DNA of 64,000 nucleotides. It comes from an uncultured Gammaproteobacteria bacterium. GTDB lineage: Bacteria; Patescibacteriota; Microgenomatia; Levybacterales; UBA12049. Below, one piece after another: positions 662 through 63,917 of this stretch (position 1 is its first letter; every line of letters begins with the position of its first letter). The DNA lies in NCBI GenBank assembly GCA_964497535.1, contig CAZCCG010000001.1, positions 2,688 to 66,687 of the forward strand. The letters are read 5' to 3'. The position numbers were made by a program, and so were the translations under genes. The notes under the pieces are model-generated. The model was not told the origin of the DNA. It saw only the letters and a program-made list of their open reading frames with translations, and ran no database searches.

Positions 662-690
662 GGGGGCCGAGTCTAACTCGGCTCCCTTTT
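662..690 (+). terminator. GC-rich hairpin plus T-run; member of the CGAGTCTNACTCG palindrome family
   Basis: ggggCCGAGTctaACTCGGctccc followed by tttt. Confidence 0.6.
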
Positions 691-770
691 CTTTTGGTAA
701 TCTATCAAACATGTGTTTAGTCTGAGCCCTCACTGCAATTCACCCTGGTTCGCAGTACAATGCGGCCAAC

Positions 771-992
771 ATGAAAACTATGAAAAACAAGTATTTCTTA
801 CATATCATTTTTACCTGGATATTTAGGCTGTTATTGGTAATGGGAGCCGTACAAATTATGGCTACCCACTCCCCTCAAGATTTATTTGGAGTAGCCGGAA
901 TTCTCTTGGGAGCAGCAGCTATGAAATTCGTCCTTCTCTGTTTTGATGAGACGATTTTCCCACCCAAACCTCTGGATGATTACCCTGCTTGA
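771..992 (+). CDS. small hydrophobic protein
   Basis: 73-aa ORF with two predicted TM helices; no recognisable family. Confidence 0.3.
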   Translation: MKTMKNKYFLHIIFTWIFRLLLVMGAVQIMATHSPQDLFGVAGILLGAAAMKFVLLCFDETIFPPKPLDDYPA

Positions 993-1083
993 AGCTACCT
1001 CCAAGCTTATACATCACATAAGGTTTGAGGCAGACCCCTGATGCCCTTTACTATTCTGATCCTTTTTGATATACTTATAGGCT

Positions 1084-1815
1084 ATGAGAAACAAGTATTT
1101 TGCTTTTGTACTATCCCTATTACTTCTGATAGGTGCGGCCCGCAACCCTATTGCTGCATTTGCAGAGCAGTCACCGCAGGAAGCCCAGCAGGAATATTAC
1201 AATCAATACATCCAGCAATATATCCAATCGATTACTACCTATTTAAATAATTACTATAGTGCTTATTATGCAGGACGCACTCCCGCGGCCGCTACTCCGC
1301 TGCTTCCTCCCACTCCAAATGCAAATCCAATTCCGTCTGTAAATCCCAATCCTAATCCGTATCCATTCCCAGCAAACCCTGGTCAAAATATCGTTGGTGG
1401 TATCTCCGCAGGACAAGTGACTGCAGGTGTCGTTATGGCTCCTACTCCCAGTCCTACCCCTACCCCCACTCCAACGCTTATGCCAACTCCCACACCAGGT
1501 ATTTCAAAACCAAGCGGCATCAAAGGCTTGGTAACAATTAGTCCGGTGTGTAACCCAAAGAAAGATCCTACCGAGCCTTGTGCCAAACCGTACCAGTCAC
1601 TCATTACAGTCAAAACTCAAGAAGGAGACTATACAGCCGGAACCGTATATTCTGACAAAAATGGTGTATTCAAACTCGACCTGGCTCCCGGAGTATACAA
1701 AGTAGTCCCGTATACGGTAAAACCCTATCCAACAACTGATGAACAAACAGTCATCGTATCAAATGGCCTCTATACAGATATCGTCGTTTCTTACGACTCC
1801 GGCAAAAAACTATAA
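1084..1815 (+). CDS. secreted protein with Pro/Thr-rich linker and C-terminal beta-rich domain
   Basis: Signal peptide MRNKYFAFVLSLLLLIGAA. Q/Y-rich region, PTPSPTPTPTPT linker, C-terminal domain with Cys pair. Confidence 0.6.
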   Translation: MRNKYFAFVLSLLLLIGAARNPIAAFAEQSPQEAQQEYYNQYIQQYIQSITTYLNNYYSAYYAGRTPAAATPLLPPTPNANPIPSVNPNPNPYPFPANPGQNIVGGISAGQVTAGVVMAPTPSPTPTPTPTLMPTPTPGISKPSGIKGLVTISPVCNPKKDPTEPCAKPYQSLITVKTQEGDYTAGTVYSDKNGVFKLDLAPGVYKVVPYTVKPYPTTDEQTVIVSNGLYTDIVVSYDSGKKL

Positions 1816-1863
1816 TCAAACACCATTGACTCTTTCCTCTTCCTTTATTAGAATGCTAACTAC

Positions 1864-2745
1864 ATGAGCTTTTTCAAAAATATCTTAGACAGTATCTATA
1901 ACCCTTCGTATTATCGACAAATCGCGCAAAAACCACTTACCTCTTCTATATCGTACTTTCTGTTATTGGCACTTCTTCTTACTGTTATCCAGACGATTAC
2001 ATTTATAAATCCTGTAAGCGCGGGTGTTACTGATCTGGTTTCAAAAGCAATCCCCAATCTCGTCAATAGCTATCCAAAGGAGTTATCAGTCACAATCAAA
2101 AATGGCTCTGTCTCCACCAATGTGAAAGAACCATATGTGATTCCTCTTCAGTCTCATAATTCTTCAGAACCAAAAAACCTTATTGTCATTACTACCAAAA
2201 AGACAGTTCCTCTTGAGCAATTTTATACCTATAATTCTCTTTTTGTACTCACTAAATATTCTCTTATCACAGTGAATAGTAGTACGAAAGCTGTCCAGGA
2301 ATTTCCCTTGCGGGATGTGAAAGATATGACCATCAACCGAACCACAATTAACCAGCAGATTACTCACATCCGTCCCTATTTCAAAACGATTGTACCGGTA
2401 CTTCTTGTCTGCATTGGTTTGGGAATATACATCGGTTATCTTCTTCGATTTGTGTATCTGCTTGCGTTGGCTCTTCTGATATTTGCTCTGATGAAATTTC
2501 TCAAACGTGATATGAAGTATGAAGATGCATACAAAATAGGCATTCATGCAATTACCGTGGGGCTTATCGTTGAAGCATTTCTTTTTCTCTTTCAATTCCA
2601 GATCCATACCGATGGCTTTCCGCTGATGACTACGCTTCTTTCTCTGATAGTGGTATATCTCAACCTGAAGGATCAACCAAAAACCAAAGTAGCAACCCCA
2701 AAACTAATAAAAAAGTCCTCCAGAAAAACCTCAAAAAAGAATTGA
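1864..2745 (+). CDS. integral membrane protein, hypothetical
   Basis: 293-aa ORF with several TM helices and a K/S-rich C-terminal tail. Confidence 0.55.
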   Translation: MSFFKNILDSIYNPSYYRQIAQKPLTSSISYFLLLALLLTVIQTITFINPVSAGVTDLVSKAIPNLVNSYPKELSVTIKNGSVSTNVKEPYVIPLQSHNSSEPKNLIVITTKKTVPLEQFYTYNSLFVLTKYSLITVNSSTKAVQEFPLRDVKDMTINRTTINQQITHIRPYFKTIVPVLLVCIGLGIYIGYLLRFVYLLALALLIFALMKFLKRDMKYEDAYKIGIHAITVGLIVEAFLFLFQFQIHTDGFPLMTTLLSLIVVYLNLKDQPKTKVATPKLIKKSSRKTSKKN

Positions 2746-2807
2746 ATCTATTTCTCTCTTACTGTCACTTGTTAGAAGTTAGAAGCTAAACAGTTTGGTC
2801 AGTTAAC

Positions 2808-2997
2808 CAATGTTCGGCCTCCAACGCAGCGGCGCACCCAAACCCTGCGGCGGCTTGCCGCGTAACCTCGACACCGTGATGCGTGGAGGGAGACCACGAG
2901 AACGGAGAGAGTGTTACAGCAGAGAAAACTAAGCTATTTGATCTGACAACCAATGTTCGGCCTCCAACGCAGCGGCGCACCCAAACCCTGCGGCGGT
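2808..2997. repeat. perfect 48-bp direct repeat (2808-2855 and 2950-2997) duplicating the 3' end of trxB
   Basis: accaatgttcggcctccaacgcagcggcgcacccaaaccctgcggcgg occurs twice, 94 bp apart. Both copies encode ...GFGCAAALEAEHWL. Confidence 0.85.
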
Positions 2998-3945
2998 GAT
3001 TGCTTGTTTATATTTTGTATCATGGACATCCCCTGCTACAAAAATTCCTTCTACATTGGTCTTGTAGTGATCGTGGATAACAATAAAACCCTCTGAATCA
3101 ACATCTATTCCTTTAAATACTTCTGTATTGGGTTTATGTCCAATTGCCACAAATACTCCATCAATAGGAAATTCCCAAATGGTTTGTTTATCATTTTTCT
3201 CAAGCGTCTTTCCTCCGGCTTGCTCGGGTGTTTGAGTTGCCATCTTATCTGCGGGCTTAATAATGATTGAGCCGTCAGAACAATGACTCACGAGCTTTAC
3301 TTTTTCAACCTTTTGCTCACCGAGTATCTCCTCTATTGTGGTATTGAAAATAACGGTAATTTTTTCATTGGCAAAGACTTTGTCTTGCATAATCTTGGAC
3401 GCCCGCAATGTATCTCCTCGATAGATAATCCATACATGACTTGCAAAGCGAGTCATAACCAATGCTTCTTCCATAGCACTGTCGCCGCCGCCGACAATAA
3501 TTACTTTTTTGTCTCTGAAAAATGGTGCATCACAAGGTGCACATGATGAAACACCCCGGCCTATTTTTTCCATTTCTCCCTTGGCACCCAACCATTTGGT
3601 ATCGGCACCGGTTGCAATAATTACACTGCGGCCTTCATAGGTTTTCTCAGCGGTTGCAACTTTAAAGGGTTTCCCGGAAAAATCTGCCGAGACAAAATCT
3701 TTTTCAATGATCTCTGCCCCATGATGCTCTGCTTGTTTACGCATATTCATCATCAAATCCGGACCTTGAATCCCTTCGGGGAAACCGGGGAAATTTTCAA
3801 CCAGAGTTGTTAATTGAAGCTGCCCGCCCCACTTGGTGCCGGCAATGATAAGTGTTTTGAGATTTGCACGGGTAGTATAAATTGCGGCTGTCAAACCGGC
3901 AGGCCCACTTCCAATGATAATAACGTCGTATAAACTTTCAGCCAT
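2929..3945 (-). CDS. trxB: thioredoxin-disulfide reductase
   Basis: MAESLYDVIIIGSGPAG FAD motif, CAPC redox-active disulfide, GGGDSA NADPH motif, C-terminal AAGFGCAAALEAE. Start ATG at 3943-3945 verified by hand. Confidence 0.9.
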   Translation of the reverse strand: MAESLYDVIIIGSGPAGLTAAIYTTRANLKTLIIAGTKWGGQLQLTTLVENFPGFPEGIQGPDLMMNMRKQAEHHGAEIIEKDFVSADFSGKPFKVATAEKTYEGRSVIIATGADTKWLGAKGEMEKIGRGVSSCAPCDAPFFRDKKVIIVGGGDSAMEEALVMTRFASHVWIIYRGDTLRASKIMQDKVFANEKITVIFNTTIEEILGEQKVEKVKLVSHCSDGSIIIKPADKMATQTPEQAGGKTLEKNDKQTIWEFPIDGVFVAIGHKPNTEVFKGIDVDSEGFIVIHDHYKTNVEGIFVAGDVHDTKYKQAITAAGFGCAAALEAEHWLSDQIA

Positions 3946-4014
3946 AGTAAAAACGAAAAACGTAAAGCGAAAAATGCAAAACAACCCATTATTTTACGCT
4001 TTGCGCTTTTAGCT

Positions 4015-4344: not shown

Positions 4345-4420
4345 ATCTGTAGTGTCTGTTTCCTACCCAAGACACTATTTATAGTAACAACTTACCAGGA
4401 AAGTGTCAATATCACAATTT

Positions 4421-4453
4421 AAAATAGTGGGGGGTACCAGACGATACCCCCCC
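4421..4453 (-). terminator. GC hairpin plus T-run downstream of the 4462-4836 gene on the minus strand
   Basis: GGGGGGTA-ccagacga-TACCCCCC; rc is followed by ACTATTTT. Confidence 0.55.
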
Positions 4454-4461
4454 GGTGAAAC

Positions 4462-4836
4462 TTAAGAGCATGATGCTCGTTGAACGTTTTGATCTTTGGC
4501 CATTATACGGTCGAGCTCTTGCCGACCCTTGTCAGTAAGCTCATACCGTATACTATGGTATGGACCGGCTGTAATACGGCTCACCATCTCCTCCTTCAGA
4601 AGAATCTGAAGTGCGCTATACGCGCTATCCTCAGGGATATTGGATGCAGGCACCGCCTCCCGAATTGCTCCAGAAAGATCGTTGGGGAAAAGAGGACCGG
4701 TTGCGACTGCTTTGAGGACACACTCCTGTATCCATTGGTTATTTTTGCGGGTTGCCTCCTCAGAGACTCGCCACAATCCAATACCACATATGATCAGTAA
4801 TGCAACGCATCCCACGATCACAAAACCCAAATCCAT
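4462..4836 (-). CDS. membrane-anchored winged-helix (PadR-like) protein
   Basis: Strong RBS AAGGAGCAGGAG before ATG at 4836. N-terminal TM helix, C-terminal wHTH-like segment YHSIRYELTDKGRQELDRI. Region is higher GC. Confidence 0.5.
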   Translation of the reverse strand: MDLGFVIVGCVALLIICGIGLWRVSEEATRKNNQWIQECVLKAVATGPLFPNDLSGAIREAVPASNIPEDSAYSALQILLKEEMVSRITAGPYHSIRYELTDKGRQELDRIMAKDQNVQRASCS

Positions 4837-4864
4837 CTCTCCTGCTCCTTTCTGGATTCTCTCG

Positions 4865-5227
4865 TTAGGTGTTTTGGCCGTGTTTCTTCTCCTTGCTGCG
4901 CGCAAGCTCGATTCGGCTCTCTGCAGTAAGGGTCCAACGGTTCCTACCATCTCCACCCTGTTCACGTCTGACTTTGTATGTACGCTGGAGTTGCCTCAAT
5001 GCATCCAACACTGCAGCAGCAGAAGGAGATGAGTGAGGTGATTTCGAAGCAATCACTCTTCGAATTTCACCCGTATCCAAAGGTCCAGGCTCCAGTGCTT
5101 TAAAAGCTTCTCGCTGCAGATAACGCTGGTAAGACCTCCTCCGTATTTTCAGTACTAATAACCCGATGAAAATTATTAGCACCACTCCACTGCTTACAGC
5201 CAAAGTACCAACCCATGGATGGTCCAT
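4865..5227 (-). CDS. membrane-anchored winged-helix protein, paralog-like to the 4462-4836 gene
   Basis: RBS GAAAGGAAT. N-terminal TM helix, basic stretch, C-terminal wHTH-like RWTLTAESRIELAR. Confidence 0.5.
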   Translation of the reverse strand: MDHPWVGTLAVSSGVVLIIFIGLLVLKIRRRSYQRYLQREAFKALEPGPLDTGEIRRVIASKSPHSSPSAAAVLDALRQLQRTYKVRREQGGDGRNRWTLTAESRIELARSKEKKHGQNT

Positions 5228-5394: not shown

Positions 5395-5673
5395 ATGGAT
5401 CTAATGGGCTATGTGGCACAGCTTGATGTGATAGATCTCATCGGTTACGTAGCAACGGGAAGTGGTATGTGTATCTTTAGCCCTGAAGTCTTCGAGACAA
5501 TCAGGACGAAAAAGGTAGGCATGAAATGGGCAACATTGGTACTCTTGGCTGTCAACACAGTCTCCTGGGGAATTGTGGGAAACGCCAGAGGTGTAACTCC
5601 CTTAGTCGTTAGTCAAGTCATCTTAGGCCTGCATGTGCTTATCTTGTTTAGGTACAAGCTACGCTATGGATAA
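5395..5673 (+). CDS. SemiSWEET-like (PQ-loop/MtN3) three-TM sugar transporter
   Basis: 92 aa. LIGYVATGSGMCIFSPEVFETIRTKK...W...G...N...LFRYKL matches the bacterial semiSWEET pattern (PQ replaced by PE). RBS GAAAGGAAG. Confidence 0.65.
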   Translation: MDLMGYVAQLDVIDLIGYVATGSGMCIFSPEVFETIRTKKVGMKWATLVLLAVNTVSWGIVGNARGVTPLVVSQVILGLHVLILFRYKLRYG

Positions 5674-5676: not shown

Positions 5677-5707
5677 GCCGGGGGGAGCAATCTCCCCGGC
5701 TCCATTT
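5677..5707 (+). terminator. hairpin GCCGGGG/CCCCGGC plus T-rich tail
   Basis: gccggggggagcaatctccccggc followed by tccatttt. Confidence 0.5.
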
Positions 5708-5776: not shown

Positions 5777-7351
5777 TTACCCTAGGTCTTCCCGTTTGGC
5801 GTGAAGGAACAGAAACCACTGATCAAAGAAAGCAAAGAGTCCTTTAAATGGTGCTTCAATGAGAAAATCAAAAACCAAAAGGATCACATTAATCTGGGAA
5901 ATCCCCTCGGTAAGCCGCCGCCCGACTCGAATAACCGGCAGGAAAAGAAAATCGACAATAGGAGTCAAAAATCCCTGGGCATCCTCAACCGTATAGGTTT
6001 GAGGAATCAATGCAATGCGATATGCCAGAAAGGAAATAATTGCCAGGAAGAACAAAAATACTACCTGACTGACCCATTGGAATCCAATCTTGGTCAAAAT
6101 AAAGATCAACAGGCCAAAGGAGATGAAAAATGCCAAGAACCACAGCCCAGTAAAAATATTTTCCATGAGAGAATATTCTTTATCTTTTTTGATACTCAAA
6201 TTGAGTGCATTCCCCATACGCGGCTTTTCATCAAAAAGAACCGACTTCATATATTGGAATATCCGATCGGTATTTGTTTGACCCGGAGCTCGAATAAAAA
6301 ATCCGACAATCAAAAGCAGGATCGGCGGAATACCAGTATTGAGAAGTAGTGTTCCCCACTGGACTTCTCCATATAACACCCTTTCATATGTTCCTTCTAT
6401 CAAATAAGCAAACAGTGCCTTGGTAACCAAAACAAAGACGACAGAACGGATAATTGCGGTAGTTACTTTTGATCTAATTCCCGCATAGCGATTATTACAT
6501 GCATCTACAACCGCTTGCTTAAATTCTTCTTCCTTTGTAACCAGTTCTTTAAATCCGGCTCCCCGAGAACGAAGTAAATCGTCCATGATGAAAAATACTG
6601 CGGTGCGTCTGCGCACATAGGAATAGATTTTATTTCGGAATGGATAATTAAGCTGTTTATTCATTTCCATATACCCCTCTTTGAAATGTTCTACAACATG
6701 AGCGAGCGTGTGAGGCGTTAACTCCCCTAAAATCTGAGTGAATAAATAGTATTGTAAAAATGCGAGATCATTTTTGGCAAAACTACTACGGACTGCAATA
6801 TACACCTGCGCATCCCGGGTCTGTTCCTGTTCATCCGTGATTGTAATATTCTCTTTCATAATCCGGAAGATATAATTAACCATGAGTTCCTTTTGATGAT
6901 TCGGATTAATTAAATGTTCTATGTCTGAGGATAGGAGATGATAAAATAAGTCGGTGAGCACAGATTCGGATACTACTTTTTGAACCTGTATCTGTTGCTT
7001 AAATTGTTTGTATACTTCAATCTTTTCAGCAATTTTTGGGATGAGTGATTCCGGCAAACTATTATTGGGGAAATACCGCGCCCACAATAGTTCCCGTACC
7101 ATGGGCTCTGCAATCTTTTTATCCCCAAACATGGAACGCCTTCGTAAAATCCGCTCAATTGCCGCACGAAGAATCACTTCCTCTTCTTTATAATCCATGG
7201 CGTTACGCAACTTTTCATACCATGCGGCAATACGTGATACGACAGGATTGACAATAATCTTTTTCTCATGATGCTCCGTTGAAGGCTGGGTAAAGGCGGT
7301 AATTAATGCTTTGGATAAGTGAGAGACGTTTTTTTCAGGTGATTGTTCCAT
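5777..7351 (-). CDS. large membrane protein: ~300-aa cytoplasmic N-domain plus C-terminal multi-TM domain; hypothetical
   Basis: 524-aa ORF with clear hydrophobic helices in its C-terminal third. No family recognised. Confidence 0.55.
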   Translation of the reverse strand: MEQSPEKNVSHLSKALITAFTQPSTEHHEKKIIVNPVVSRIAAWYEKLRNAMDYKEEEVILRAAIERILRRRSMFGDKKIAEPMVRELLWARYFPNNSLPESLIPKIAEKIEVYKQFKQQIQVQKVVSESVLTDLFYHLLSSDIEHLINPNHQKELMVNYIFRIMKENITITDEQEQTRDAQVYIAVRSSFAKNDLAFLQYYLFTQILGELTPHTLAHVVEHFKEGYMEMNKQLNYPFRNKIYSYVRRRTAVFFIMDDLLRSRGAGFKELVTKEEEFKQAVVDACNNRYAGIRSKVTTAIIRSVVFVLVTKALFAYLIEGTYERVLYGEVQWGTLLLNTGIPPILLLIVGFFIRAPGQTNTDRIFQYMKSVLFDEKPRMGNALNLSIKKDKEYSLMENIFTGLWFLAFFISFGLLIFILTKIGFQWVSQVVFLFFLAIISFLAYRIALIPQTYTVEDAQGFLTPIVDFLFLPVIRVGRRLTEGISQINVILLVFDFLIEAPFKGLFAFFDQWFLFLHAKREDLG

Positions 7352-7427
7352 ATAAAACTGTCATTTTGAAGCAGATGCGGTATCTTTTTCAAGATGAGAT
7401 TCTATTATATATCAAATTTCAGAGGAT

Positions 7428-8141
7428 TCAAACACTCCCCAGAAGGGATTCTTGTTCCAAGGCTGATAAATCATTGATGATAATTCTCAAATGGTTATGG
7501 GTATTGATGAGCCCTTTTCGCTCCAGTTTCTCTATTTCAAGACTCACTGTCTCTCGAGTGAGACCTACCAACGATCCTATATCTTTATGAGTAAAAGGAA
7601 TTGGTATTACCAATCTATTCTCTTCCTGCTGTCCGTACCGGCGTGCATATGCAGCCAATACAGAAGCAACCTTTTCGTATGCATTGCCAAAAGCTAAATA
7701 TTCCATCCTTCTATATAGACTCCCCATCCGTTTGACTATTTTTGATGTCACTGCCAAAAGGATTTGGGGATTTGACATAATAAATTGCAAAAAAACCTCT
7801 TTGGGAGCATACACTGCGGAAACATCACACATCGGCTCTGCATAATAATCGATTGGATCATGTGCAATTGCCCACCTCAAGGGAAATAGTTCCGAAGGAC
7901 CCATAATCAACCGTGTTATTTCTTCTCCATGCCGTGATACCGAATATAATCTTACATATCCTTTCTGGATAAAATAAACACCCGTTGGCACATCATCTTC
8001 ATGGATAATAATATCGTGCTTACGATAGTTACGGACTTTATACTGGCTAAAAAACTCCTCAAGCTGACGCAATGCATCCTCACTCATACTGGAGCTATTA
8101 TACACCGTAAGAAAAAAATTGTAACCTCCTACCCGATACAA
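7428..8141 (-). CDS. Crp/Fnr-family transcriptional regulator
   Basis: cNMP-binding beta-roll (IHEDDVPTGVYFIQKGYVRLY) plus C-terminal HTH (SLVGLTRETVSLEIEKLERKGLI). Start is ambiguous: TTG at 8141 or ATG at 8087. Confidence 0.8.
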   Translation of the reverse strand: MYRVGGYNFFLTVYNSSSMSEDALRQLEEFFSQYKVRNYRKHDIIIHEDDVPTGVYFIQKGYVRLYSVSRHGEEITRLIMGPSELFPLRWAIAHDPIDYYAEPMCDVSAVYAPKEVFLQFIMSNPQILLAVTSKIVKRMGSLYRRMEYLAFGNAYEKVASVLAAYARRYGQQEENRLVIPIPFTHKDIGSLVGLTRETVSLEIEKLERKGLINTHNHLRIIINDLSALEQESLLGSV

Positions 8142-13638: not shown

Positions 13639-13644
13639 AATAAT

Positions 13645-13775
13645 TCGGTTATCGGTTCTCAGTCTTCAGTTTTCGGATCCGAGTTTGCCAGTTTTCTGTT
13701 GATCAGTCAGAACCAATAGACTGAACCCCGATTAACCTACATCTGACAACAGATAACCGAGAACTGATAACTGGT
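13645..13775. repeat. MITE-like intergenic repeat family A, copy 1
   Basis: ttcggttatcggttctcagtcttcagttttc...gacaacagataaccgagaactgataactgg. Near-identical copies at 48585 and 56630. Confidence 0.8.
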
Positions 13776-16231: not shown

Positions 16232-16385
16232 GACTACAGTCTACGGTCTACAGCCAATCATGAATTAAGAATAAAGAATTATCCTTCGGCTGTGCTCAGG
16301 ACAAGTGAATCAAGGCGATACCATAACTCATAATTCATACTTCATAATTCCCAACTGTTAATTCTGAGAGGTAGTCAGTAGACTT
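16232..16385. repeat. MITE-like intergenic repeat family B, copy 1
   Basis: ...ccttcggctgtgctcaggacaagtgaatcaagg...cataactcataattcatacttcataattcccaactgttaattc, with inverted ctacagtctac / gtagac termini. Confidence 0.8.
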
Positions 16386-45372: not shown

Positions 45373-45390
45373 TAAAGAAAAAAACCACTT

Positions 45391-47729: not shown

Positions 47730-48443
47730 CTACGGCAATAAAATCCTGATGAAGTTCTCAGCGTAGGTATACCCTTTTTGCTTGCCAATATCCATTGCTC
47801 GATTCCTTACTCGCTCTTCTATTTTTTTAAAGTCCTCAAACTGGCTTTTGTGTCGACGTAGTGTTTCAATTTTCTTCTCCATAGTATGGGTAATATCCAC
47901 AACCGTATCTATCTTTTCAAAGCTGGTGAGCCATAATTCTTTTACTTTGTGCGGCTTAAGGCCTTCTTTCTCATGTTCCAAGAAAGTGAGTCGGTCTCGA
48001 GCCAGTGGAAATACCGCATCGAGTGTTGCCAAGGCAGCTGCCCGATGGTCAGTGTGATTCACCATACCGCTGCCTGAAAGCAGTGAATTTGTCGAATAAT
48101 AGTAGGTCGGATCCATAGTCATGACGATATCTGGTTTCAAGGTTCGGATCAGCCGTACGATTTCTTCTTTGAGTACCTGATCAGCAACCAGTTCTGTATC
48201 AGGATGGGTCAGAAAAAAACACTGTTTGACGCCTAATACTTTATTTGCATCTTTCTGTTCTTGTTGCCGTAGCGTAATCAGCTTCTGATGAGTCATATGA
48301 GGATCTGAAGAACCCTTGGAACCGTTTGTACATAAAAGATAATATGCAGTTGCTCCCTCCCCGATCCATTTGGCAATCGTCCCTGACGCGCCAAAATCAG
48401 TATCATCCGGATGCGCACCAACCGCCAAAATTACTTTATTCAT
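47730..48443 (-). CDS. PIG-L/LmbE-family N-acetylglucosaminyl deacetylase
   Basis: ILAVGAHPDDTDFGASGT motif. Confidence 0.8.
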   Translation of the reverse strand: MNKVILAVGAHPDDTDFGASGTIAKWIGEGATAYYLLCTNGSKGSSDPHMTHQKLITLRQQEQKDANKVLGVKQCFFLTHPDTELVADQVLKEEIVRLIRTLKPDIVMTMDPTYYYSTNSLLSGSGMVNHTDHRAAALATLDAVFPLARDRLTFLEHEKEGLKPHKVKELWLTSFEKIDTVVDITHTMEKKIETLRRHKSQFEDFKKIEERVRNRAMDIGKQKGYTYAENFIRILLP

Positions 48444-48463
48444 AGTATCTCTTCTCTCAACTG

Positions 48464-48534
48464 TAGGCCCAGAGGGAATCGGACCCCCGTCAAGTGTGTA
48501 TAAGACACCCGCTCTACCATTGAGCTATGGGCCT
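48464..48534 (-). tRNA. tRNA with anticodon TAT (tRNA-Ile-UAU, AUA-decoding)
   Basis: Hand-folded. Perfect 7-bp acceptor AGGCCCA/TGGGCCT, D-arm GCTC-AATGGTA-GAGC, anticodon loop CTTATAC, T-arm GGGGG-TCCGATT-CCCTC. Confidence 0.65.
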
Positions 48535-48584
48535 GGGAACTACGTAATTTTACCAGAGAGAGCTCAAGGAGACAAGCCAGGACT

Positions 48585-48715
48585 CGGTTACCAGTTCTCT
48601 GTTTTCTGTCATCAGATAGAAGTTCGTCAGTTTTCGGTACTTCAGTTTTAACAGATTAACTGAGAACAGATAAACCCGCATCTGATAACTGACAACCAAA
48701 AACCGATAACTGAAG
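48585..48715. repeat. repeat family A, copy 2
   Basis: Diverged copy of the 13645 element. Confidence 0.7.
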
Positions 48716-48724
48716 TTTCTATTC

Positions 48725-51091
48725 TTATAATCGAGCACGTTGTCCTATTTCTGCTTCGACCACGTGTACATCGCGGCCGTATTTGAGGCGGGAAAGCTCT
48801 TTGACGAGCTCGGAGACTCTCAAGTTCATCATAGATTTCTCAACAGCAACATCTTTGGTAGTATCCAGAGAAAAGGGAGGTACCGGTTCTCCCCCCACAA
48901 TAGTACGCACATAACAATTATACTTATCGACATTAATCAAATCTGCTTCGGTAAATACTGGCGTGAATTCATGCTGCAAATAGTTGGCATCAGTCACACC
49001 TACACGGAATGACGCAATCGTACCAACGTTTCCAAAAATAGCGTTTTTGACCTCTTCATCCATTTGTCCGATAAATTGGTTGGCAACAATCAACGACAAA
49101 CGGTATTTTCGGGCTTCAGATAGTATTTGGGCAAAATCAGGAGTCGCAAAGTTTTGAAACTCATCAACATAGAGAAAGAAATCACGCCGCAGCTCTTTGG
49201 CCATTGTCTGCCGGCTCATAGCAGCCACCAAAATCTGCGGTACGATAATAAGACCCAGGAAGTTGGAGTTCTCTTCCCCGATTTTACCTTTTGATAAATC
49301 AATGAGAAGAATTTTTCCCTCATCCATAGCTTTTCGCGCGTTAAACGCGCTTTCCGATTGTCCAATAATATTTCGAATCATTTTGTTGGTAACAAAGCGG
49401 CCGAATTTGGAGACGATATAATCCAACACTTCGGATTTATGAAAATCAGAGGTTTGGGCAATCTGATCTGTCCAGTACCTTCGAATAACCGGATCTTCTA
49501 CTTTTGGCAATAACTCTTGCACAAAGTTTTGATCTGTTAATGCCCGCACTACTTCCATAAATGTCGCGCCCGGTTCATACATACAGGTAAGCATGGCATT
49601 TCGCACTGCGTGTTCAAAACGGGGTCCAATAATACCGGTCTTATTTGGATCAAAGAGCTTGTACATAAGCCCAATGACTGAAGACACTACCAAATGTTTC
49701 TGTTGCTCAGTCTCGCCATAGAGCATGTTCATACCCAATGGCCGCTGTGTATCTGAAGGATCAAAAAGAATGACGTCTTCTGCCCGATTTGGCGGCATCA
49801 GCCGCAATATATCTTCAATCAAATCACCATGAGGATCAATAACAGCCAATCCCTCGCCTGCTTTGATGTCTTGCATAATCATTGATTTCAAAAGCTCTGA
49901 TTTCCCCGTACCGGTCTTTCCAATGATATACATATGCCGCATACGATCCTCTCGTTCAATATATACGGGTTTTGAAACACCTCGAAAGACACTATTTCCC
50001 AAAAAAGTACCGCTTGTTGGCAATTTTGCAGGAGCGGGAGCCCGTTTGGAGTCGACCCAATGAATCCCGGGGGTAGTAACGCTTTTATTGGGTAAGTGGA
50101 ACAATGTTGCTAATTCTTCTGAAGATAAGATACTTTTGCCACCAAACAGGGGCATATACCGATATAAAAAGTCCTGCATAAACATATTTCTGGTAAAAAA
50201 GTATGATTTATGCTTGGTAAATGAATTGAGTCCTTCAAATTGAGCAAATGCACTTCGAATATTATGCAAATGTGCTTCCGCTGCCTCAGTACTGCTGGAG
50301 GAGACAACAATACGAATAACCGATTTAAATCCTGGTTTTGAAGTTTTGTTGTCAACCCCTTCTAATTCTTTTTGGTCTGTCGAGTAACTTGCTTTTTCAG
50401 GATTTGATTCATTCTTTTTAGTCTTGGCGAGATATTTTTTCCCAATTTTTTTCCAGGATGAATCTGCAGGCTCCAACATAATCTGAATTGCAGCCCCCTC
50501 CCCCGGAGACATTTTTGCCAATACTGAAGTTATAGAAGCCAAAGGATCAGTTGGTAAGTCTTTAAAAACCTTGATTGGCAAATAGTTGGATGATTTCAGT
50601 GTTAACGTAATAAAAGCAACCTTCCCTGTTTCAGAAAAAATATTGTATTCATTACCTACAATATTTTCTATTTTTTGCCGGGAATGTTTGGGGTCGACAA
50701 TAGTAATATCTGCCTCAGGATATGCTCCGTTGATTTGTTTTTCTACCAAATCACGATATTTATTGGGAGTATGAACATAGAAGCGGATATCCCCCGGCAT
50801 ACCGACAATTTCAAAAGAAAGTGTCGGCTGAGAACGAAAAAAATCAAGATTACCGGTCCTACGAAGAGATGAAAGGCTGGCAAACATCTGTTCGGCCGCA
50901 TCAATTTTGATCTCGTTATTGCGAGGAACAGCAATCTGCAGAAGTGTTGAGTTAAGCGCGTCTGATTCTCGTCCCCGATTTCTATACCATAACAGCAATA
51001 GACGCCCCAACAGGAACAAGAATCCTGCACCGAATAGAAGTCCCACAAGACTTACTAACAGTACCAAAAGTGATGATGTAATATCTGTCAT
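48725..51091 (-). CDS. membrane-anchored P-loop ATPase, TraG/VirD4/TraD (type-IV coupling protein) or HerA/DUF87-like
   Basis: N-terminal TM helix. MYIIGKTGTGKSELL Walker A, IDPHGDL, Walker-B-like FLYVDEFQNF, RKYRLSLIVANQ. Confidence 0.55.
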   Translation of the reverse strand: MTDITSSLLVLLVSLVGLLFGAGFLFLLGRLLLLWYRNRGRESDALNSTLLQIAVPRNNEIKIDAAEQMFASLSSLRRTGNLDFFRSQPTLSFEIVGMPGDIRFYVHTPNKYRDLVEKQINGAYPEADITIVDPKHSRQKIENIVGNEYNIFSETGKVAFITLTLKSSNYLPIKVFKDLPTDPLASITSVLAKMSPGEGAAIQIMLEPADSSWKKIGKKYLAKTKKNESNPEKASYSTDQKELEGVDNKTSKPGFKSVIRIVVSSSSTEAAEAHLHNIRSAFAQFEGLNSFTKHKSYFFTRNMFMQDFLYRYMPLFGGKSILSSEELATLFHLPNKSVTTPGIHWVDSKRAPAPAKLPTSGTFLGNSVFRGVSKPVYIEREDRMRHMYIIGKTGTGKSELLKSMIMQDIKAGEGLAVIDPHGDLIEDILRLMPPNRAEDVILFDPSDTQRPLGMNMLYGETEQQKHLVVSSVIGLMYKLFDPNKTGIIGPRFEHAVRNAMLTCMYEPGATFMEVVRALTDQNFVQELLPKVEDPVIRRYWTDQIAQTSDFHKSEVLDYIVSKFGRFVTNKMIRNIIGQSESAFNARKAMDEGKILLIDLSKGKIGEENSNFLGLIIVPQILVAAMSRQTMAKELRRDFFLYVDEFQNFATPDFAQILSEARKYRLSLIVANQFIGQMDEEVKNAIFGNVGTIASFRVGVTDANYLQHEFTPVFTEADLINVDKYNCYVRTIVGGEPVPPFSLDTTKDVAVEKSMMNLRVSELVKELSRLKYGRDVHVVEAEIGQRARL

Positions 51092-53365: not shown

Positions 53366-53864
53366 AAAAAATCCTCCTTGTTTCAGAACCCAAGAAGGAT
53401 GTGCGCACAAAAAAAATCCTGCTCGGGAACATCCACCAGCTGGCGGAAAAAGTATAGTTTTCTGGCTTTCCCTTCAATTCACTCAGGTAAAGGAAAATTT
53501 ATCCTGAGCTTGTCGAAGGACAGTAGCGGCACTGCCATGGATTTGCACCATGATTGCCTATACTTCCAATTTTTTATACTACGCTCTTTCTTTTTTGCAA
53601 TCAATACCCTATAACAAATTGCCTCTGTGAAGTAACTGGAGTATAATAGCTAGATTCAAAGTTGATCAAATCACTATTTGCGATCTGATTTTCTTTGAAA
53701 TCAGTACCTTAACATGTATGGAATAAATACCCTTTTTTCTCGGCAGAGACCACAGGAATGACAGTATCACCGATACTCTTTCTTTGGTCTTTGCTAAGAG
53801 GAGGGCAAAGGAAGAAACGGTAGACAATGCATCCATTACGCAACTCTCATAAGAGAAGGAGCTA

Positions 53865-54023
53865 TGGGTCAACAAGAAATCATCCACTGTGGCCAGTGCG
53901 GGACACCCATTCACATAACTAACCTTAAGCAAGTTCCACGAGCTGAAGGGATAGAGCTGAAATGCCCCGTCTGCCACGGTACACCCATAGTCAAACCCTA
54001 CTGTGAGTCTCGCGACAATTAGG
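53865..54023 (+). CDS. small zinc-ribbon protein (52 aa), absent from the ORF track
   Basis: Strong RBS AGAAGGAG 5 nt before the ATG. MGQQEIIHCGQCGT...CPVCHG, i.e. CxxC...CxxC. Confidence 0.45.
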
Positions 54024-54032
54024 GGAGTCCTG

Positions 54033-54317
54033 ATGGATCAGATTCCACCTCTCTGTGGCATCGAACGATGCAAACCTAGGGGTAGAAAGTTCAAAGTGGT
54101 CGTTATCAACCAGCACGCGCTGGGTGATGAAGCCATCACGAGGGCACTCTCACATCAACAGGGAAACTACAACCATCCTTTGGATATTACATCTCTGCGG
54201 GAACTCAGCAAAGAGAACGCAGAAGCATGGTGCGCCATGATAAATGACGTGCATCAGAAACTGGTAGCCTTCATCACACCGCCCGAGAACAAGAAGACAG
54301 TTGCACAGGAGGCATGA
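54033..54317 (+). CDS. hypothetical protein (high-GC island)
   Basis: MDQIPPLCGIERC..., with RBS GGGGAG. Confidence 0.4.
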   Translation: MDQIPPLCGIERCKPRGRKFKVVVINQHALGDEAITRALSHQQGNYNHPLDITSLRELSKENAEAWCAMINDVHQKLVAFITPPENKKTVAQEA

Positions 54318-54318
54318 T

Positions 54319-55128
54319 ATGCAACTTCTCGATGGGAAAACTGCTCTGATCTTTGGCGTTGCCAACGAGCGTAGTTTGGCCTGGGGCATCGCACAGGCGC
54401 TTGCCGCCCAGGGTGCAATGTTGGCGTTTACTTACGCAGCAGACGCGCTGGAGAAGCGGGTTCGCCCGCTAGCTGCTCAGGTCGGTTCCCACTTCGTCGA
54501 GCGCTGCGACGTTCAAGATGACACCGAGCTGGATACGGTATTCCGTCGCTTCGGCGAAGAATATTATCCACGGCTCGATATCCTTGTTCATGCAGTTGCG
54601 TTTGCAAAGCGAGAAGAACTCGCTGGACGCTACGTAGATACCTCCCGTGAGGGATTCCAATTGGCCCTCGACGTAAGTGCCTACTCCCTGGTGGCACTTG
54701 CTAAACGAGCTGCGCCGCTGATGGCAGGCACCAACCCGAGCATCCTGACGCTGACCTACGACGGCTCGCAACGCACGTATCCCAACTATAACGTGATGGG
54801 AGTGGCAAAAGCCGCTCTTGAGGCGAGTGTGCGATACCTCGCCCGAGATTTGAGCCCGGATGGTATTCGGATCAACGCAATCTCCGCTGGTCCAGTTCGG
54901 ACACTTGCATCATCTGGAATCCGTGGATTCCACTGGATTCTGGATCATGGTGCAGAACGAGCACCGCTACGTCGTAACATCGGACAAAGTGATGTCGGGG
55001 ATGCCGCTGTCTACCTCAGCTCTGACCTGGCCCGTAATGTCACAGGTCACGTGTTGTATGTTGATGCCGGTTCTCACATTGTTGGCGCAGAGCTAGGTGC
55101 CAGCGAGCGGGAAACTGCTGGCGACTAA
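54319..55128 (+). CDS. fabI: enoyl-[acyl-carrier-protein] reductase (NADH), FabI
   Basis: LDGKTALIFGVANERSLAWGIA N-terminus and the Y-x6-K region (YNVMGVAKAALE). ~57% GC. Confidence 0.9.
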   Translation: MQLLDGKTALIFGVANERSLAWGIAQALAAQGAMLAFTYAADALEKRVRPLAAQVGSHFVERCDVQDDTELDTVFRRFGEEYYPRLDILVHAVAFAKREELAGRYVDTSREGFQLALDVSAYSLVALAKRAAPLMAGTNPSILTLTYDGSQRTYPNYNVMGVAKAALEASVRYLARDLSPDGIRINAISAGPVRTLASSGIRGFHWILDHGAERAPLRRNIGQSDVGDAAVYLSSDLARNVTGHVLYVDAGSHIVGAELGASERETAGD

Positions 55129-55462
55129 TCCATTCCACACATCCTATCAGGGCGAGAGGGTGCAATCTTGTACTCTCCGCCCTGTAATTTTTACTTTTCA
55201 GCATTGGTTCGCGTAACGATCCGCGTAGTTCAGCGGTATTTTTGCGTTCTCTCTTCTTTTCCTCTATAATTCCAAACGAAGAATAATTCAGTTCCTTGTA
55301 GACTGTTGTTTTTCGCACATTTACATGTCTGCGCAAAAAAATCTTTGTTACAGAAGCAACGGCTATGGGAAGATAACTCCTTATCTTTCTGTAGGCTTTG
55401 CTTCTTCCTTCTTGGGTGCAACCCAAGAAAAATAACAGAGAAGCACGTCAGAAAGGGAACCC

Positions 55463-55915
55463 ATGAAATACAAAAGGCTTGTGAGTATTGTAGGAAACGG
55501 GATGCTGATGGTGGCGGGTCTTGGGCTTATGACAATCCCCACCAACATGCTGGTAATCATTCTGGGGATATCAGTCTATTCTATCGGAGTACTACAGTTC
55601 ATACAAGCACTTCGGCCCAGACCCCTGGTGAGACACTATGTCACCGACTTTGGTTATCGACTCGAGTTCTACCGACAAGCAGAGCTCTGGATATTTCGAC
55701 TTCAAAGGAAAAGGGGGAACAGACGTTTTAACCAATGGTATACCATCAGTCAATCCAGCTATTCTCCCCCCTTGACTCCCACGGGACTACACAGTCTGTA
55801 CGAACAGATATATAGAGGAGTGGATGCGGGATATGACCTGGAAGCAGGACGCCTCTGGAACCATATGCTGACATACCTGCACGGGCATCAACTCTTGGTA
55901 GGAGAATCTGCGTAA
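55463..55915 (+). CDS. membrane protein, hypothetical (high-GC island)
   Basis: Two N-terminal TM helices. Confidence 0.45.
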   Translation: MKYKRLVSIVGNGMLMVAGLGLMTIPTNMLVIILGISVYSIGVLQFIQALRPRPLVRHYVTDFGYRLEFYRQAELWIFRLQRKRGNRRFNQWYTISQSSYSPPLTPTGLHSLYEQIYRGVDAGYDLEAGRLWNHMLTYLHGHQLLVGESA

Positions 55916-55928
55916 GAAAGGACTGACT

Positions 55929-56531
55929 ATGCGTATCGCAGTCTTGTCTGAGGAACCCATCACTGAGTTCCCCCAGGAGGAGGGATTCGAGTGGACACGC
56001 GTCGGTCTCGACCCAGCAACCTGGTCACCCGGAAAATTCGATTGCTTCGTAGTGAAAAGCCCATACAGGAAACTCTTTATCCAGGAAGTAACCAAGAGGT
56101 GGAAATCCCGGAGCGATTTCCCTGCAGCTCCTTACCTTATGGTGTCACGCCGAGGACGGGTTCCCAAGGATTACCGCGACGGGTTCGACGGGTATGTGGT
56201 AAAACTACAGGAACTTGTAGAGTTTGCAGGAGCCATCAGCGACCGCAAGAGAGACTACGCCAACCGTAACAGAGTAGACACCCGACCTCCGTTGGAGCCT
56301 CCCCCTGTAGGTGAGAATCTATCCTGTTCCGAGTGCGGCCTGCTTCTGCGTACGACCGATCACGAAAAAGAGGGAGAGGACTATACCCCGTTCGTAGAAG
56401 AACGAACCCGGGGATGGGAAATCCCTTGTCCGGGATGCCACAACCCCCTGCGTATCTACGAATCGGTTACTGGACCCATACCCGAGTGGCAACCCCTCGT
56501 GGATGAGGCAGACTTGGGACGAGGCGTCTAG
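55929..56531 (+). CDS. hypothetical protein with C-terminal zinc ribbon
   Basis: CSECG...CPGCHNP. Confidence 0.5.
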   Translation: MRIAVLSEEPITEFPQEEGFEWTRVGLDPATWSPGKFDCFVVKSPYRKLFIQEVTKRWKSRSDFPAAPYLMVSRRGRVPKDYRDGFDGYVVKLQELVEFAGAISDRKRDYANRNRVDTRPPLEPPPVGENLSCSECGLLLRTTDHEKEGEDYTPFVEERTRGWEIPCPGCHNPLRIYESVTGPIPEWQPLVDEADLGRGV

Positions 56532-56556
56532 TACCACGCGCAGACACACCACACCA

Positions 56557-56583
56557 GGGCGGTCGAGTCTGACTCGACCGCCC
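56557..56583. repeat. GC-rich palindromic hairpin GGTCGAGTCTGACTCGACC (family shared with 662-686 and 63894-63917)
   Basis: gggcggtcgagtctgactcgaccgccc. Confidence 0.8.
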
Positions 56584-56629
56584 CCAAACATCCTCTACTA
56601 AATGCACCCATTGAAAGCTAAAATATGAA

Positions 56630-56762
56630 GTTCGGTTATCGGTTCTCAGTCTTCGGTTTTCAGATAAAGGTTCTTCAGTTTTCTGTTTATCAGTTAGAAC
56701 CGAAAGACCGATCACTGGTAAACTTCGCTCCGACAACTGACAACAGAGAACTGATAAGTGGA
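56630..56762. repeat. repeat family A, copy 3
   Basis: ttcggttatcggttctcagtcttcggttttc...gacaacagagaactgataagtgg. Confidence 0.8.
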
Positions 56763-56827
56763 ATAGATCCGCGTAAATCCGCTCTAAATCCGTGAAAATC
56801 AATTGAGGTATTGAAGAAATTGAACTA

Positions 56828-56869
56828 TACGCCACCAGCCTCGCCAGACGCGAGTCTAGGCGGGAACGC
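56828..56869. repeat. 42-bp inverted repeat, left copy (partner at 59806-59851) flanking nrdJ-nrdR
   Basis: tacgccaccagcctcgccagacgcgagtctaggcgggaacgc. Confidence 0.9.
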
Positions 56870-56888
56870 TTCTAACTAAACACTCCGG

Positions 56889-59805: not shown

Positions 59806-59851
59806 AGCGTTCCCGCCTAGACTCGCGTCTGGCGAGGCTGGTAGCGTATAG
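59806..59851. repeat. 42-bp inverted repeat, right copy (one mismatch vs 56828-56869)
   Basis: rc = tacgctaccagcctcgccagacgcgagtctaggcgggaacgc. Confidence 0.9.
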
Positions 59852-60098
59852 TTGATTTCTATCGTTCAGTTATCTGCCTATAACTAAATGTTCAAAAAAT
59901 TAGCCGCTCAACGCTCACTACAACTAGTGGTAATAACTAGAATAGGACACTATATATGCGGTGTCAACTGGAAATTTCTGTATCAAAACCCAGCAGTGGT
60001 GTTTTCTAGCTTCATTCTTTGTTTTTTCAGGATTTGCTGAATTGGAGGTGAATTATTGCTGAGAAAAATTGAGTATAAAAAGATGACAACTGAAGAAT

Positions 60099-62480: not shown

Positions 62481-62544
62481 GATAAAACCGGCAAGTGGAT
62501 AAATCCAATGCTACTACAAAATTTTCAATTTGAAATTTTCATTG

Positions 62545-62662
62545 AATCCTTCGACTCCGCTCAGAACAAGTGAATCAAAGCAATACCATAACTCATAATT
62601 CATACTTCATGATTCCCAACTGTTAATTCTTAGCGGTAGACTGTAGTCTGTAGACCACCGTT
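62545..62662. repeat. repeat family B, copy 3
   Basis: ...gaacaagtgaatcaaagcaataccataactcataattcatacttcatgattcccaactgttaattc...gtagactgtagtctgtagacc. Confidence 0.8.
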
Positions 62663-62668
62663 ACCCTA

Positions 62669-62893
62669 TTGCATTTTGTCTTTTTCTGTGTACATACTAT
62701 ATATATGGCTAAGAAAAAAACCAAGTCATCCCCCTCTTCCCGTCGAGTCCATCCGCTTCATCGAAGTCATTCGATCTCAGGAAGTTTTAAAAAACATCCG
62801 GTGTTAACCCTATCTCTGATTGCCATGATACTGTTGTTTGTCGGAATTATTTATATTTCCCTCCTCTCTCCCTTTGTAGCAGTCCCCGCATAA
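62669..62893 (+). CDS. small membrane protein
   Basis: 74 aa, K/S-rich N-terminus plus one TM helix. Confidence 0.35.
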   Translation: MHFVFFCVHTIYMAKKKTKSSPSSRRVHPLHRSHSISGSFKKHPVLTLSLIAMILLFVGIIYISLLSPFVAVPA

Positions 62894-63061
62894 TCCTTAA
62901 AGCACAAATGAATGGTACTGCGTATTTCGTACATCGTATTTTGTATTTCGCTCTCTCTGGAATTTCCTATATACGATATACCATATACTAAATACGAACT
63001 GTAAGAAAAATTGAAGACTATGAAACAAGTAGATTTTTAGGATACGATACCCTACCCAAAC

Positions 63062-63826
63062 CTACTTGGAGGAATCCACTTTGAGAGTCTTTATTGCTTC
63101 TTGTACGGTTGTCATAAATTGAGCAGGGAAAATAATAGTTGAATTTTTTTCGGTGGAAATCTCAGCCATTGTTTGTAGTGTCCGCAGCTGGAGAGCGACG
63201 GGATGTTTTGAAATCAAATCAGCTGCTTCTCCTAATTTCTGGGCTGCTTGAAACTCTCCATCTGCCGCAATAATTTTTGCCCGTCGTTCGCGGTCTGCTT
63301 CTGCTTCTTTGGCCATTGCCCGCTGCATATTGTCCGGGAGTTGGATATCTTTGATTTCAACTGCCGTTACTTGTACTCCCCAGGGCTCAGTGTGGTTGTC
63401 TATGACATTTTTGATTTGAGTATTGATGTCTGAGGTTTTCGATAGCAACTGGTCCAACATAAACTGCCCGACGACATTGCGAACCGTTGTTTGAGATATT
63501 TGGTTAACTGCTTCATAGACATCTTCTATAGCAATCACTGACTTTTGCGGATCACTTACCAGATAATAAGCTACTGCTGCAATATCAATAGAAACATTAT
63601 CTTTTGTGATAATTTTTTGGGAAGGAATTCCCATAGTTACAGTGCGAAGGCTTACCCGCTGCATACGCTCTACAATCGGGATAAGAATAATGAGCCCCGG
63701 ACCCCTGACTCCGGTAACTCGTCCTAGGAAAAAAACAACTCCCCGCTCATACTCCTGCACCACACGAAGTGACGCAAAAAGAAAAAATAGAACAATTACG
63801 ATAAGAATCGGGATTACAAATTCCAT
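63062..63826 (-). CDS. SPFH/band-7 (stomatin/slipin-like) protein
   Basis: TM anchor plus SPFH core: [26 protein letters not shown]...[30 protein letters not shown]. Confidence 0.85.
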
Positions 63827-63893
63827 ACTTTCACTATATGAAGAAGCCAAAAGGAAGTCAATAGGAAACACAGTATTTTTTGTGGAATAAATG

Positions 63894-63917
63894 GGGGTCG
63901 AGTCAGACTCGACCCCC
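63894..63917. repeat. GC-rich palindromic hairpin GGTCGAGTCAGACTCGACC (inverted orientation of the 56557 copy) at the onset of a high-GC segment
   Basis: gggggtcgagtcagactcgacccccc; the sequence after it is visibly GC-rich. Confidence 0.8.

Follow-up and report, generated by a model that had tools for sequence, protein, structure and literature searches.

GC-rich gene units and the hairpins at their ends

We examined a family of three related GC-rich hairpins in a 64-kb stretch of the 393,298-bp contig CAZCCG010000001.1 (hereafter the window, meaning the whole stretch of DNA that was analysed). The window has a GC content of 42% and a gene content typical of Patescibacteria, also known as the Candidate Phyla Radiation (CPR), with an ATP-dependent DNA ligase, MurD, FtsH, Tgt, and NrdR together with a B12-type ribonucleotide reductase (RNR). 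The named relatives of MurD, about 58-63% identical, were mostly assigned to 'Patescibacteria group' and 'Candidatus Levyibacteriota'. A TraD/VirD4-like ATPase and many membrane proteins of unknown function are also encoded.

GC-rich blocks were located at about 1-700, 4400-5200 (extending to a hairpin at 5677-5700), 28600-29400 and 53800-56700, and from 63.9 kb onward. The GC content at third codon positions (GC3) ranged from 0.49 to 0.68 in the genes of these blocks, against 0.32-0.42 in core genes. The three related hairpins and the units that they close are the following:

1-653, + strand: unit closed by copy 1, with a 92-aa membrane protein (1-279) and a 117-aa zinc-ribbon membrane protein (300-653)
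661-687, + strand: hairpin copy 1, GGGGGGCCGAGT-CTA-ACTCGGCTCCCT, then TTTCTTTTGG; 8 nt past the stop codon at 651-653
55463-56531, + strand: unit closed by copy 2, with a 150-aa open reading frame (ORF) and then a 200-aa ORF with a C-terminal zinc ribbon
56557-56583, + strand: hairpin copy 2, GGGCGGTCGAGT-CTG-ACTCGACCGCCC, then CCAAACATCC; 25 nt past the stop codon at 56529-56531
63893-63917, - strand: hairpin copy 3, in the sense direction GGGGGTCGAGT-CTG-ACTCGACCCCC, then ATTTATTCCA; about 11 nt past the likely stop codon at 63929-63931
63929-64000, - strand: GC-rich gene end closed by copy 3, with 72 nt inside the window (the gene is cut by the window end)

The two genes of the copy-1 unit have GC3 values of 0.57 and 0.68, and an AT-rich, promoter-like stretch lies just 5' of the window start, before this unit (seen in L005). 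An earlier note on this DNA had placed the hairpins at GC boundaries, and the composition agrees with it: at the hairpin copies the GC content falls from about 0.52-0.63 to about 0.40. Taking 300 nt on each side, the difference was 0.113 for copy 1 (within the top 2.7% of window positions) and 0.140 for copy 2 (within the top 0.4%), while at copy 3 the last 83 nt of the window have a GC content of 0.63 against 0.40 on the opposite side. The hairpins coincide with these boundaries because the units are compositionally foreign.

The other high-GC blocks are closed by strong GC hairpins as well, as had been noticed before, and one more such hairpin follows the fabI gene (at about 55148-55184; see below):

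4429-4452, - strand: GC-rich, terminator-like hairpin closing the 4.4-5.2 kb block of winged-helix membrane proteins
5677-5700, + strand: GC-rich, terminator-like hairpin closing a 92-aa ORF (5395-5673) at the other end of the 4.4-5.2 kb block; unrelated to the family
29347-29369: GC-rich hairpin between convergent genes, closing the 28.3-29.3 kb block; unrelated to the family

The segment 4462-5227 (- strand) holds two adjacent GC-rich, paralog-like genes with a membrane anchor and a winged-helix domain (a weak AphA/PadR-like match), and the hairpins at 4429-4452 and 5677-5700, which bound the block on both sides, face outward.

We surveyed the gene ends of 80 ORF calls for hairpins of -20 kcal/mol or stronger. 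These were present at 6 out of 6 GC-rich unit ends and at 1 out of 74 other gene ends (Fisher p = 2.3e-8), the sole exception sharing a bidirectional hairpin with a GC-rich unit. This organism therefore does not use strong hairpins as its generic terminators, a possibility that the earlier note had itself raised. In related genomes (about 1 Mb) perfect GC-rich hairpins were rare as well. The hairpins thus lie at the 3' ends of small accessory gene units of foreign composition, and the earlier interpretation is supported to this extent. Independent Logan assemblies of three sequencing runs had 0 mismatches to the window across the blocks and their flanks, so the junctions are real and not an assembly artefact.

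All three sequences were found at the positions where they had first been reported, and the core common to them is CGAGTC-WR-ACTCG. When up to one mismatch was allowed, the core CGAGTCNNACTCG gave 6 strand-matches at 3 sites of the window, where 0.40 were expected, and none of 100 shuffles reached 6 matches. The 19-mer GGTCGAGTCTGACTCGACC, with up to three mismatches, matched copies 2 and 3 only (expectation 0 in the window). Copies 2 and 3 are identical at 19 out of 19 bases, and a chance likeness between them is excluded. Between copies 1 and 3 there are three differences, namely a compensatory pair (C-G in copy 1 for U-A in copy 3), a G.U wobble in the stem of copy 1 and a loop base, and in copy 2 one G-C pair is flipped. 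The alignment of the three sequences has compensatory changes at 2 stem positions and 97% of cells paired, which amounts to weak covariation. Outside the hairpin there is no resemblance among the copies, their flanks and upstream proteins being unrelated, and they are spaced by 56 kb and 7 kb. Based on the 19/19 match and the few differences of copy 1, the three copies appear to share descent and to make up a small family of repeats private to this genome.

The family can be written as the pattern GGYCGAGTCTRACTCGRCY. A covariance model built from the three copies and run on the window found no fourth significant member; the next site was 4427-4454 (E=0.82), and the hairpin at 4429-4452 was therefore not taken as a member. 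Rfam had no family for any of the hairpins, and the GTCTG loop motif was not enriched among further hairpins.

The hairpins had been described as perfect palindromes, which is true of copies 2 and 3 (stems of 12 and 11 bp, respectively) and not of copy 1, a perfect palindrome over 7 bp only (666-682) that reaches 12 pairs through two G.U pairs. All three have G+C-rich stems of 11-12 bp and a 3-nt loop, with folding energies of -22 to -24.5 kcal/mol and z-scores of -3.4 to -5.6 in a 66-nt context (-4.5 to -6.4 when trimmed); none of 200 shuffled sequences folded as stably. Copy 2 gave -24.5 kcal/mol and z = -5.6. The sense RNA of copy 1 folds at -22.2 kcal/mol and the antisense RNA at -17.2, and for the hairpin of the fabI unit the values are -27.6 and -19.4, respectively. 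This advantage of 5-8 kcal/mol in the sense RNA is due to G.U pairs, and such sense-biased folding suggests that these hairpins act as RNA made from the coding strand.

The three hairpins are all sense-oriented, 8, 25 and about 11 nt past stop codons. U-rich tails follow copy 1 (TTTCTTTTGG) and copy 3 (ATTTATTC), and both copies satisfy the rule of a terminator scan, which reported copy 1 as the best terminator-like site in 1-20 kb and copy 3 as the best in 44-64 kb. Copy 2 was not flagged by the scan because it has no T tail. The position, orientation and stability of the hairpins, and their tie to foreign units, are what the data show.

The fabI region and its counterpart in a sister genome

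Copy 2 lies in a stretch next to the RNR gene that also carries fabI:

53599-56888: stretch between the RNR stop codon and a cobalamin-riboswitch-like leader of a PduO-type adenosyltransferase gene
53864-55184, + strand: fabI unit, with a 52-aa zinc-ribbon ORF, a 104-aa ORF, FabI (54319-55128) and a strong hairpin with a T tail at about 55148-55184

The order within 53599-56888 is the fabI unit, the copy-2 unit and then a nest of two private repeats. A metagenome scan gave 80 related loci (RNR 66-76% identical), and 64 of them reach far enough past RNR to be informative. The PduO-type gene was found 11-374 nt (median 186) past RNR in 44 of the 64 loci and after one membrane protein gene of native GC content in another 15, so that it follows directly or in this way in 59 loci; it was not found downstream of RNR in the remaining 5. 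None of the 64 loci had fabI. With the PduO-type gene after RNR in 59 of these loci and fabI in none, the sequence comparison marks 53599-56888 as an insertion relative to them. Insertion relative to related genomes is established in this way for one block, the fabI region.

An adenosylcobalamin (AdoCbl)-II riboswitch was located between RNR and the adenosyltransferase gene in 7 out of 8 relatives tested. In the window, 53439-53598 (- strand), upstream of the PduO-type gene, matched a cobalamin riboswitch weakly, with 25.9 bits where the gathering score is 31.5. The host site of the fabI insertion is a 50-nt spacer of an otherwise conserved nrdR-RNR-riboswitch-PduO locus. Among the relatives, clear AdoCbl-II riboswitches occupy the short RNR-adenosyltransferase spacer in L046, L049, L012, L076, L033 and L014.

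A sister genome from a different sequencing project (L008, an 11.1-kb locus) is 82% identical to the window at the DNA level in the nrdR-RNR region and carries a GC-rich fabI beside RNR in the same orientation. Its fabI unit ends in GGAGGGGGCCACTGGCCCCCTCC followed by a T run, an unrelated canonical terminator, and the copy-2 unit is absent from the locus. A second GC-rich gene adjoins GAPDH in L008; it encodes a 158-aa secreted protein (7199-7675) and ends in GGGAGGGGAGAG...CTCTTCCTCTCCC and then a T run, again unrelated to the hairpin family. The C-terminus encoded by the gene before copy 3 matches this protein at 10 out of 19 aligned residues in a manual count, with no significant BLAST match, and we tentatively regard the two genes as homologous.

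L008 and the window thus agree in where the hairpin of the fabI unit stands and in its type of structure, but not in its sequence, and the same holds tentatively for the second unit; this fits a structural role such as termination. The earlier note had the hairpins travelling with the genes. This does not hold for the fabI unit, nor, as far as the tentative match goes, for the second one, and the unrelated hairpins of L008 argue against a sequence-specific recombination site moving together with these genes. They also imply that copies 2 and 3 became identical, or stayed so, in the lineage of the window alone.

The relatives of FabI form a close clade with 75-90% identity. Homologues were found on a contig of 70.6% GC (L089, 85% identical), on a contig of 69.7% GC (L090, 79% identical), where the gene adjoins UbiD, LigAB and ABC transporter genes, and on a Joint Genome Institute contig with UbiD and Rieske genes (89% identical). 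The contigs L089 and L090 have a non-CPR gene content. In a neighbour-joining tree, built without bootstrap, the FabI of the window nests inside this clade of about 70% GC, and by this placement FabI came from a clade living in bacteria of about 70% GC. Its GC3 in the window is 0.54, and it has therefore drifted well towards the host composition. FabI (enoyl-acyl carrier protein reductase) was the only fatty-acid synthesis gene seen in the window, and the bacteria with its homologues (79-90% identical), of about 70% GC, are metabolically versatile.

The proteins before copies 1 and 2 had no real relatives. The 117-aa protein before copy 1 was found in its own cluster only among 5.8 billion proteins, and the 200-aa protein before copy 2 had just two marginal zinc-ribbon matches among 1.84 billion representatives. 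Pfam had no family for the 92-aa and 117-aa proteins of the copy-1 unit, nor for the proteins of the copy-2 unit. The island proteins tested had no relatives in viral contigs, phage records gave no match to the 200-aa protein, and plasmid records matched the island DNA within fabI only. A phage or plasmid origin of the islands was therefore set aside, as these searches returned only fabI itself.

Outside the window, no copy of the hairpin family was found in 1.01 Mb of related genomes. The 19-mer had 2 single matches in 185,579 species genomes and 4 single matches in viral contigs, and no genome and no viral contig had it more than once. We treated these single matches as chance, since they fell mostly in coding regions of unrelated, mostly GC-rich DNA. 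The FabI donor-like contigs (L089 and L090) had no such hairpin. Two further core matches, in L027 (7374-7555; CGAGTCTGACTCG) and L083 (about 2940-3040; CGAGTTTGACTCG, with GGTCGCGTCAGACGCGACT adjoining), reached E=0.15 at best with the covariance model. They correspond to the variable P2 stem of a cobalamin riboswitch past the PduO-type gene, one homologous site in both, and were rejected as a chance resemblance.

Other repeats and features of the window

We also found other private repeats, all intergenic, two of which sit directly next to copy 2. The D1 repeat (131 nt) is present at 13644-13774, 48583-48713 and 56631-56761, with copies 70-79% identical. It is a long imperfect palindrome that folds at -36 to -45 kcal/mol on either strand and resembles a miniature inverted-repeat transposable element; its copy at 56631-56761 directly adjoins hairpin copy 2, and D1 was private to this genome among the sequences compared. 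The D2 repeat (106 nt) is located at 16256-16361, 34109-34214 and 62521-62626, with copies 77-96% identical and no Rfam match.

The nrdR-RNR operon is exactly bounded by an inverted repeat of 53 nt (56818-56870 and 59806-59858), whose arms are 94% complementary and can be extended to about 65 nt. One arm follows closely on the RNR stop codon, and the other immediately precedes the start of nrdR. An imperfect hairpin, CTCGC-CAGAC-GCGAG, is present in both arms, and the 5' and 3' untranslated regions of an nrdR-RNR mRNA would be complementary over about 50 nt. This repeat was absent from the sister genome and the 80 related loci. Its similarity to the hairpin family did not exceed that of shuffled sequence, and it was not counted as kin of the family.

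The only tyrosine recombinase in the window (46826-47686) is Xer-like, scoring 167.8 bits for XerC, 167.3 for XerD and 67.7 for the integron integrase (cutoff 265), and it falls below every curated cutoff. Directly after its gene there is an AT-rich perfect palindrome, TATAATAGTTATAAAGATTATAACTATTATA, at 47691-47721, which may be a dif-like site or a bidirectional terminator, and a smaller relative of this palindrome, TTTATAACAATTATAAA, is located at 23994-24010. The Xer-like recombinase is clustered with a tRNA-Met, a tRNA-Ile (anticodon UAU, which is rare), a TraD/VirD4-like coupling ATPase of 788 aa and a D1 repeat in 45293-51091, which may be the remnant of an integrated conjugative element.

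A 71-nt direct duplication (2783-2853 and 2926-2996; 89% identical) involves the 3' end of a thioredoxin-reductase-like gene (2929-3984) and leaves a pseudo-copy just downstream of it. Three tandem 24-nt repeats (CTTGCCCTGAGCCTGCCGAAGGAG) are found within the ATP-dependent DNA ligase gene at 21147-21218. Finally, a 22-nt motif, ATATACTGTATACCATATACTA, occurs three times (82-91% identical) between genes and near gene ends, at 20103-20124, 32466-32487 and 62969-62990, and may be a shared operator or promoter element.

Role of the hairpins and comparison with known systems

Intrinsic terminators have a G+C-rich stem of about 5-14 bp, a loop of 3-8 nt and a U-rich tract after the stem. We think it probable that the three hairpins are intrinsic (Rho-independent type) terminators, or 3'-end hairpins, of acquired gene units. 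Each hairpin would close one GC-rich, lineage-specific transcription unit in a Patescibacteria genome of about 42% GC. Upon sense transcription, a G+C-rich stem of 11-12 bp with a 3-nt loop would form 8-25 nt past the stop codon, with a U-rich tail in copies 1 and 3, and would end transcription, or shield the 3' end of the mRNA, ahead of the next host gene. The hairpin would then be the last element held GC-rich by selection before the host-like AT-rich intergenic DNA. That transcription terminates at the hairpins is what we infer from these features. A literature search found no paper on terminators or repetitive extragenic palindromic (REP) elements in Patescibacteria.

Several points weigh against this reading. 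Copy 2, with no U tract on either strand (CCAAACATCC follows the stem), does not have the canonical form of an intrinsic terminator. Copies 2 and 3 share 19 identical nt, whereas the L008 hairpins after the fabI unit and after the tentatively matching second unit are unrelated; a structural role alone is insufficient to account for this, and some copying process is needed. The genes were taken from simple ORF calls. The link between the hairpins and GC-rich units has three copies as its basis, and the analysis covered 64 kb out of the 393 kb or more of the contig.

One rival reading is a REP-like or other miniature mobile palindrome, copied by a Y1 transposase of the REP-associated tyrosine transposase (RAYT) type or by another hairpin-recognising enzyme, and possibly serving also as a terminator. 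It would be seen after foreign units because it inserts or is retained there. REP elements are present in many copies per genome, have a cognate Y1 (RAYT) transposase and a GTAG-like 5' tetranucleotide, and frequently form paired clusters. The three dispersed copies have the hairpin alone in common, with no similarity of their flanks, and the 19-nt identity against unrelated sister hairpins (again tentative for the second unit) suggests a recent spread in this lineage. The other private intergenic repeats (131 nt in three copies, 106 nt in three copies and the 53-nt inverted pair), two of them adjoining copy 2, make a copying process for short palindromes plausible, and at 3 copies per 64 kb a whole genome would have a few dozen. 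On the other hand, about 70 ORFs of the window were scanned without finding a Y1 transposase or RAYT, no GTAG-like 5' tetranucleotide lies beside any copy, and all copies are singletons without paired arrangements. All three hairpins are in the terminator position, in sense and after GC-rich units, for which the chance would be about 6e-4 if gene ends were hit at random; the family was also missing from the 1.01 Mb of relatives and was not a repeat in any of the 185,579 species genomes. We rate a REP-like origin as unlikely, though it is the strongest competitor of termination.

Less likely again is a co-transfer of the three units from one higher-GC genome, plasmid or phage, itself unknown, whose terminators share the hairpin sequence. 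It would explain why all three copies close GC-rich units; the genes beside copies 1 and 2 have no known relatives, so that their source could be shared, and the copy-2 unit is absent from the sister locus. Against it, the 19-mer never occurred more than once per species genome or viral contig and its single matches are chance-like, and the donor-like contigs of FabI do not have the hairpin. The viral, phage and plasmid searches described above gave no support either, with fabI as their only return. Moreover, the coding sequence has drifted well towards the host composition (FabI GC3 of 0.54) and copies 2 and 3 are still identical, which a recent copying event fits better.

More speculatively, the shared hairpin could be the end of a hairpin-dependent process of gene acquisition or relocation in Patescibacteria, in which small GC-rich modules, made of genes that lack relatives, are inserted with, or later capped by, a standard stem-loop; we consider this improbable. 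It would equally be a long shot that, as this idea entails, the genome carries a lineage-specific cassette-like system beside its other private palindromic repeats.

A site for a protein that binds double-stranded DNA (an operator, a DNA-uptake sequence or a restriction-modification site), or a chance likeness among GC-rich hairpins, is very improbable. A perfect palindrome containing GAGTC/GACTC would suit such a site, but the half-site is not over-represented (46 GAGTC and 49 GACTC in the window, against 45 and 55 expected), and the restriction-modification idea was dropped for this reason. The copies stand after genes and not at promoters, and the pairing of copy 1 is held by G.U pairs, which are relevant in RNA only. 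DNA uptake sequences (DUS in Neisseria, and the uptake signal sequences, USS, in Haemophilus) occur about once per kb genome-wide, with many inverted pairs, and often form terminators; 3 copies per 64 kb are far below that density. Chance is excluded for copies 2 and 3.

Finally, we give hardly any credence to the attC-like recombination site of integron-type gene cassettes that the earlier note had put forward. The sites of integrons are imperfect palindromes of 57-141 nt with R''-L''/L'-R' boxes and extrahelical bases, and they serve arrays of promoterless cassettes through intI and attI. The hairpins do stand at the 3' end of small accessory units, but they are 25-27 nt long with perfect or nearly perfect stems and no extrahelical bases, no paired RYYYAAC...GTTRRRY core sites were found within 100 nt of them, the units are scattered without forming an array and each has its own AT-rich upstream region, and the window has no integron integrase, its sole tyrosine recombinase being Xer-like.

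The window offers a clean example, open to checking, of the way in which foreign genes are housed in a streamlined CPR/Patescibacteria genome. They form compact transcription units that are complete in themselves, each preceded by AT-rich DNA like that of the host and closed at the 3' end by a strong GC hairpin. That one hairpin is common to three units raises an answerable question, whether a REP-like copying process exists in CPR bacteria, from which, to our knowledge, no such process is described. Should the hairpins be terminators and nothing more, this is ordinary biology, usefully documented.

Among known systems, Rho-independent terminators share with the hairpins the stem and loop, the sense position past the stop codon and the U-rich tail (at copies 1 and 3), and the fabI unit of L008, with tentatively the matching second unit, ends in a textbook terminator. 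The absence of a U tract at copy 2 sets it apart from them, as does the occurrence of nearly one sequence in three hairpins, for which ordinary terminators have no need.

REP elements and bacterial interspersed mosaic elements (BIME), which are mobilised by RAYT and are known from Enterobacteria and Pseudomonas, are likewise short, GC-rich, extragenic palindromes after genes, present in several conserved copies with compensatory changes, and they can stabilise mRNA 3' ends or terminate transcription. The family described here differs in having no RAYT seen in the window, no 5' tetranucleotide and no paired clusters, and its 3 known copies are singletons after foreign genes. With the attC sites of integrons it has in common that small accessory genes have a stem-loop at their 3' end, while the hairpins are far shorter and near-perfect and come without R/L core sites, array, intI or attI.

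The closest parallel for the units themselves is a study of 125 aquifer Patescibacteria genomes (PMC12455944), which reported hundreds of islands and transferred genes, amounting to up to 13% of genome length; a term search of its text found terminators unmentioned. In both cases small, compositionally deviant insertions lie in a streamlined CPR genome. In the window, these are GC-richer than the host and take the form of mini-operons of 0.7-1.3 kb, each with a strong hairpin at its end, and three of these end hairpins are of one sequence. Islands of horizontal gene transfer in Patescibacteria are thus already documented (PMC12455944), and the new element here is the shared hairpin only.

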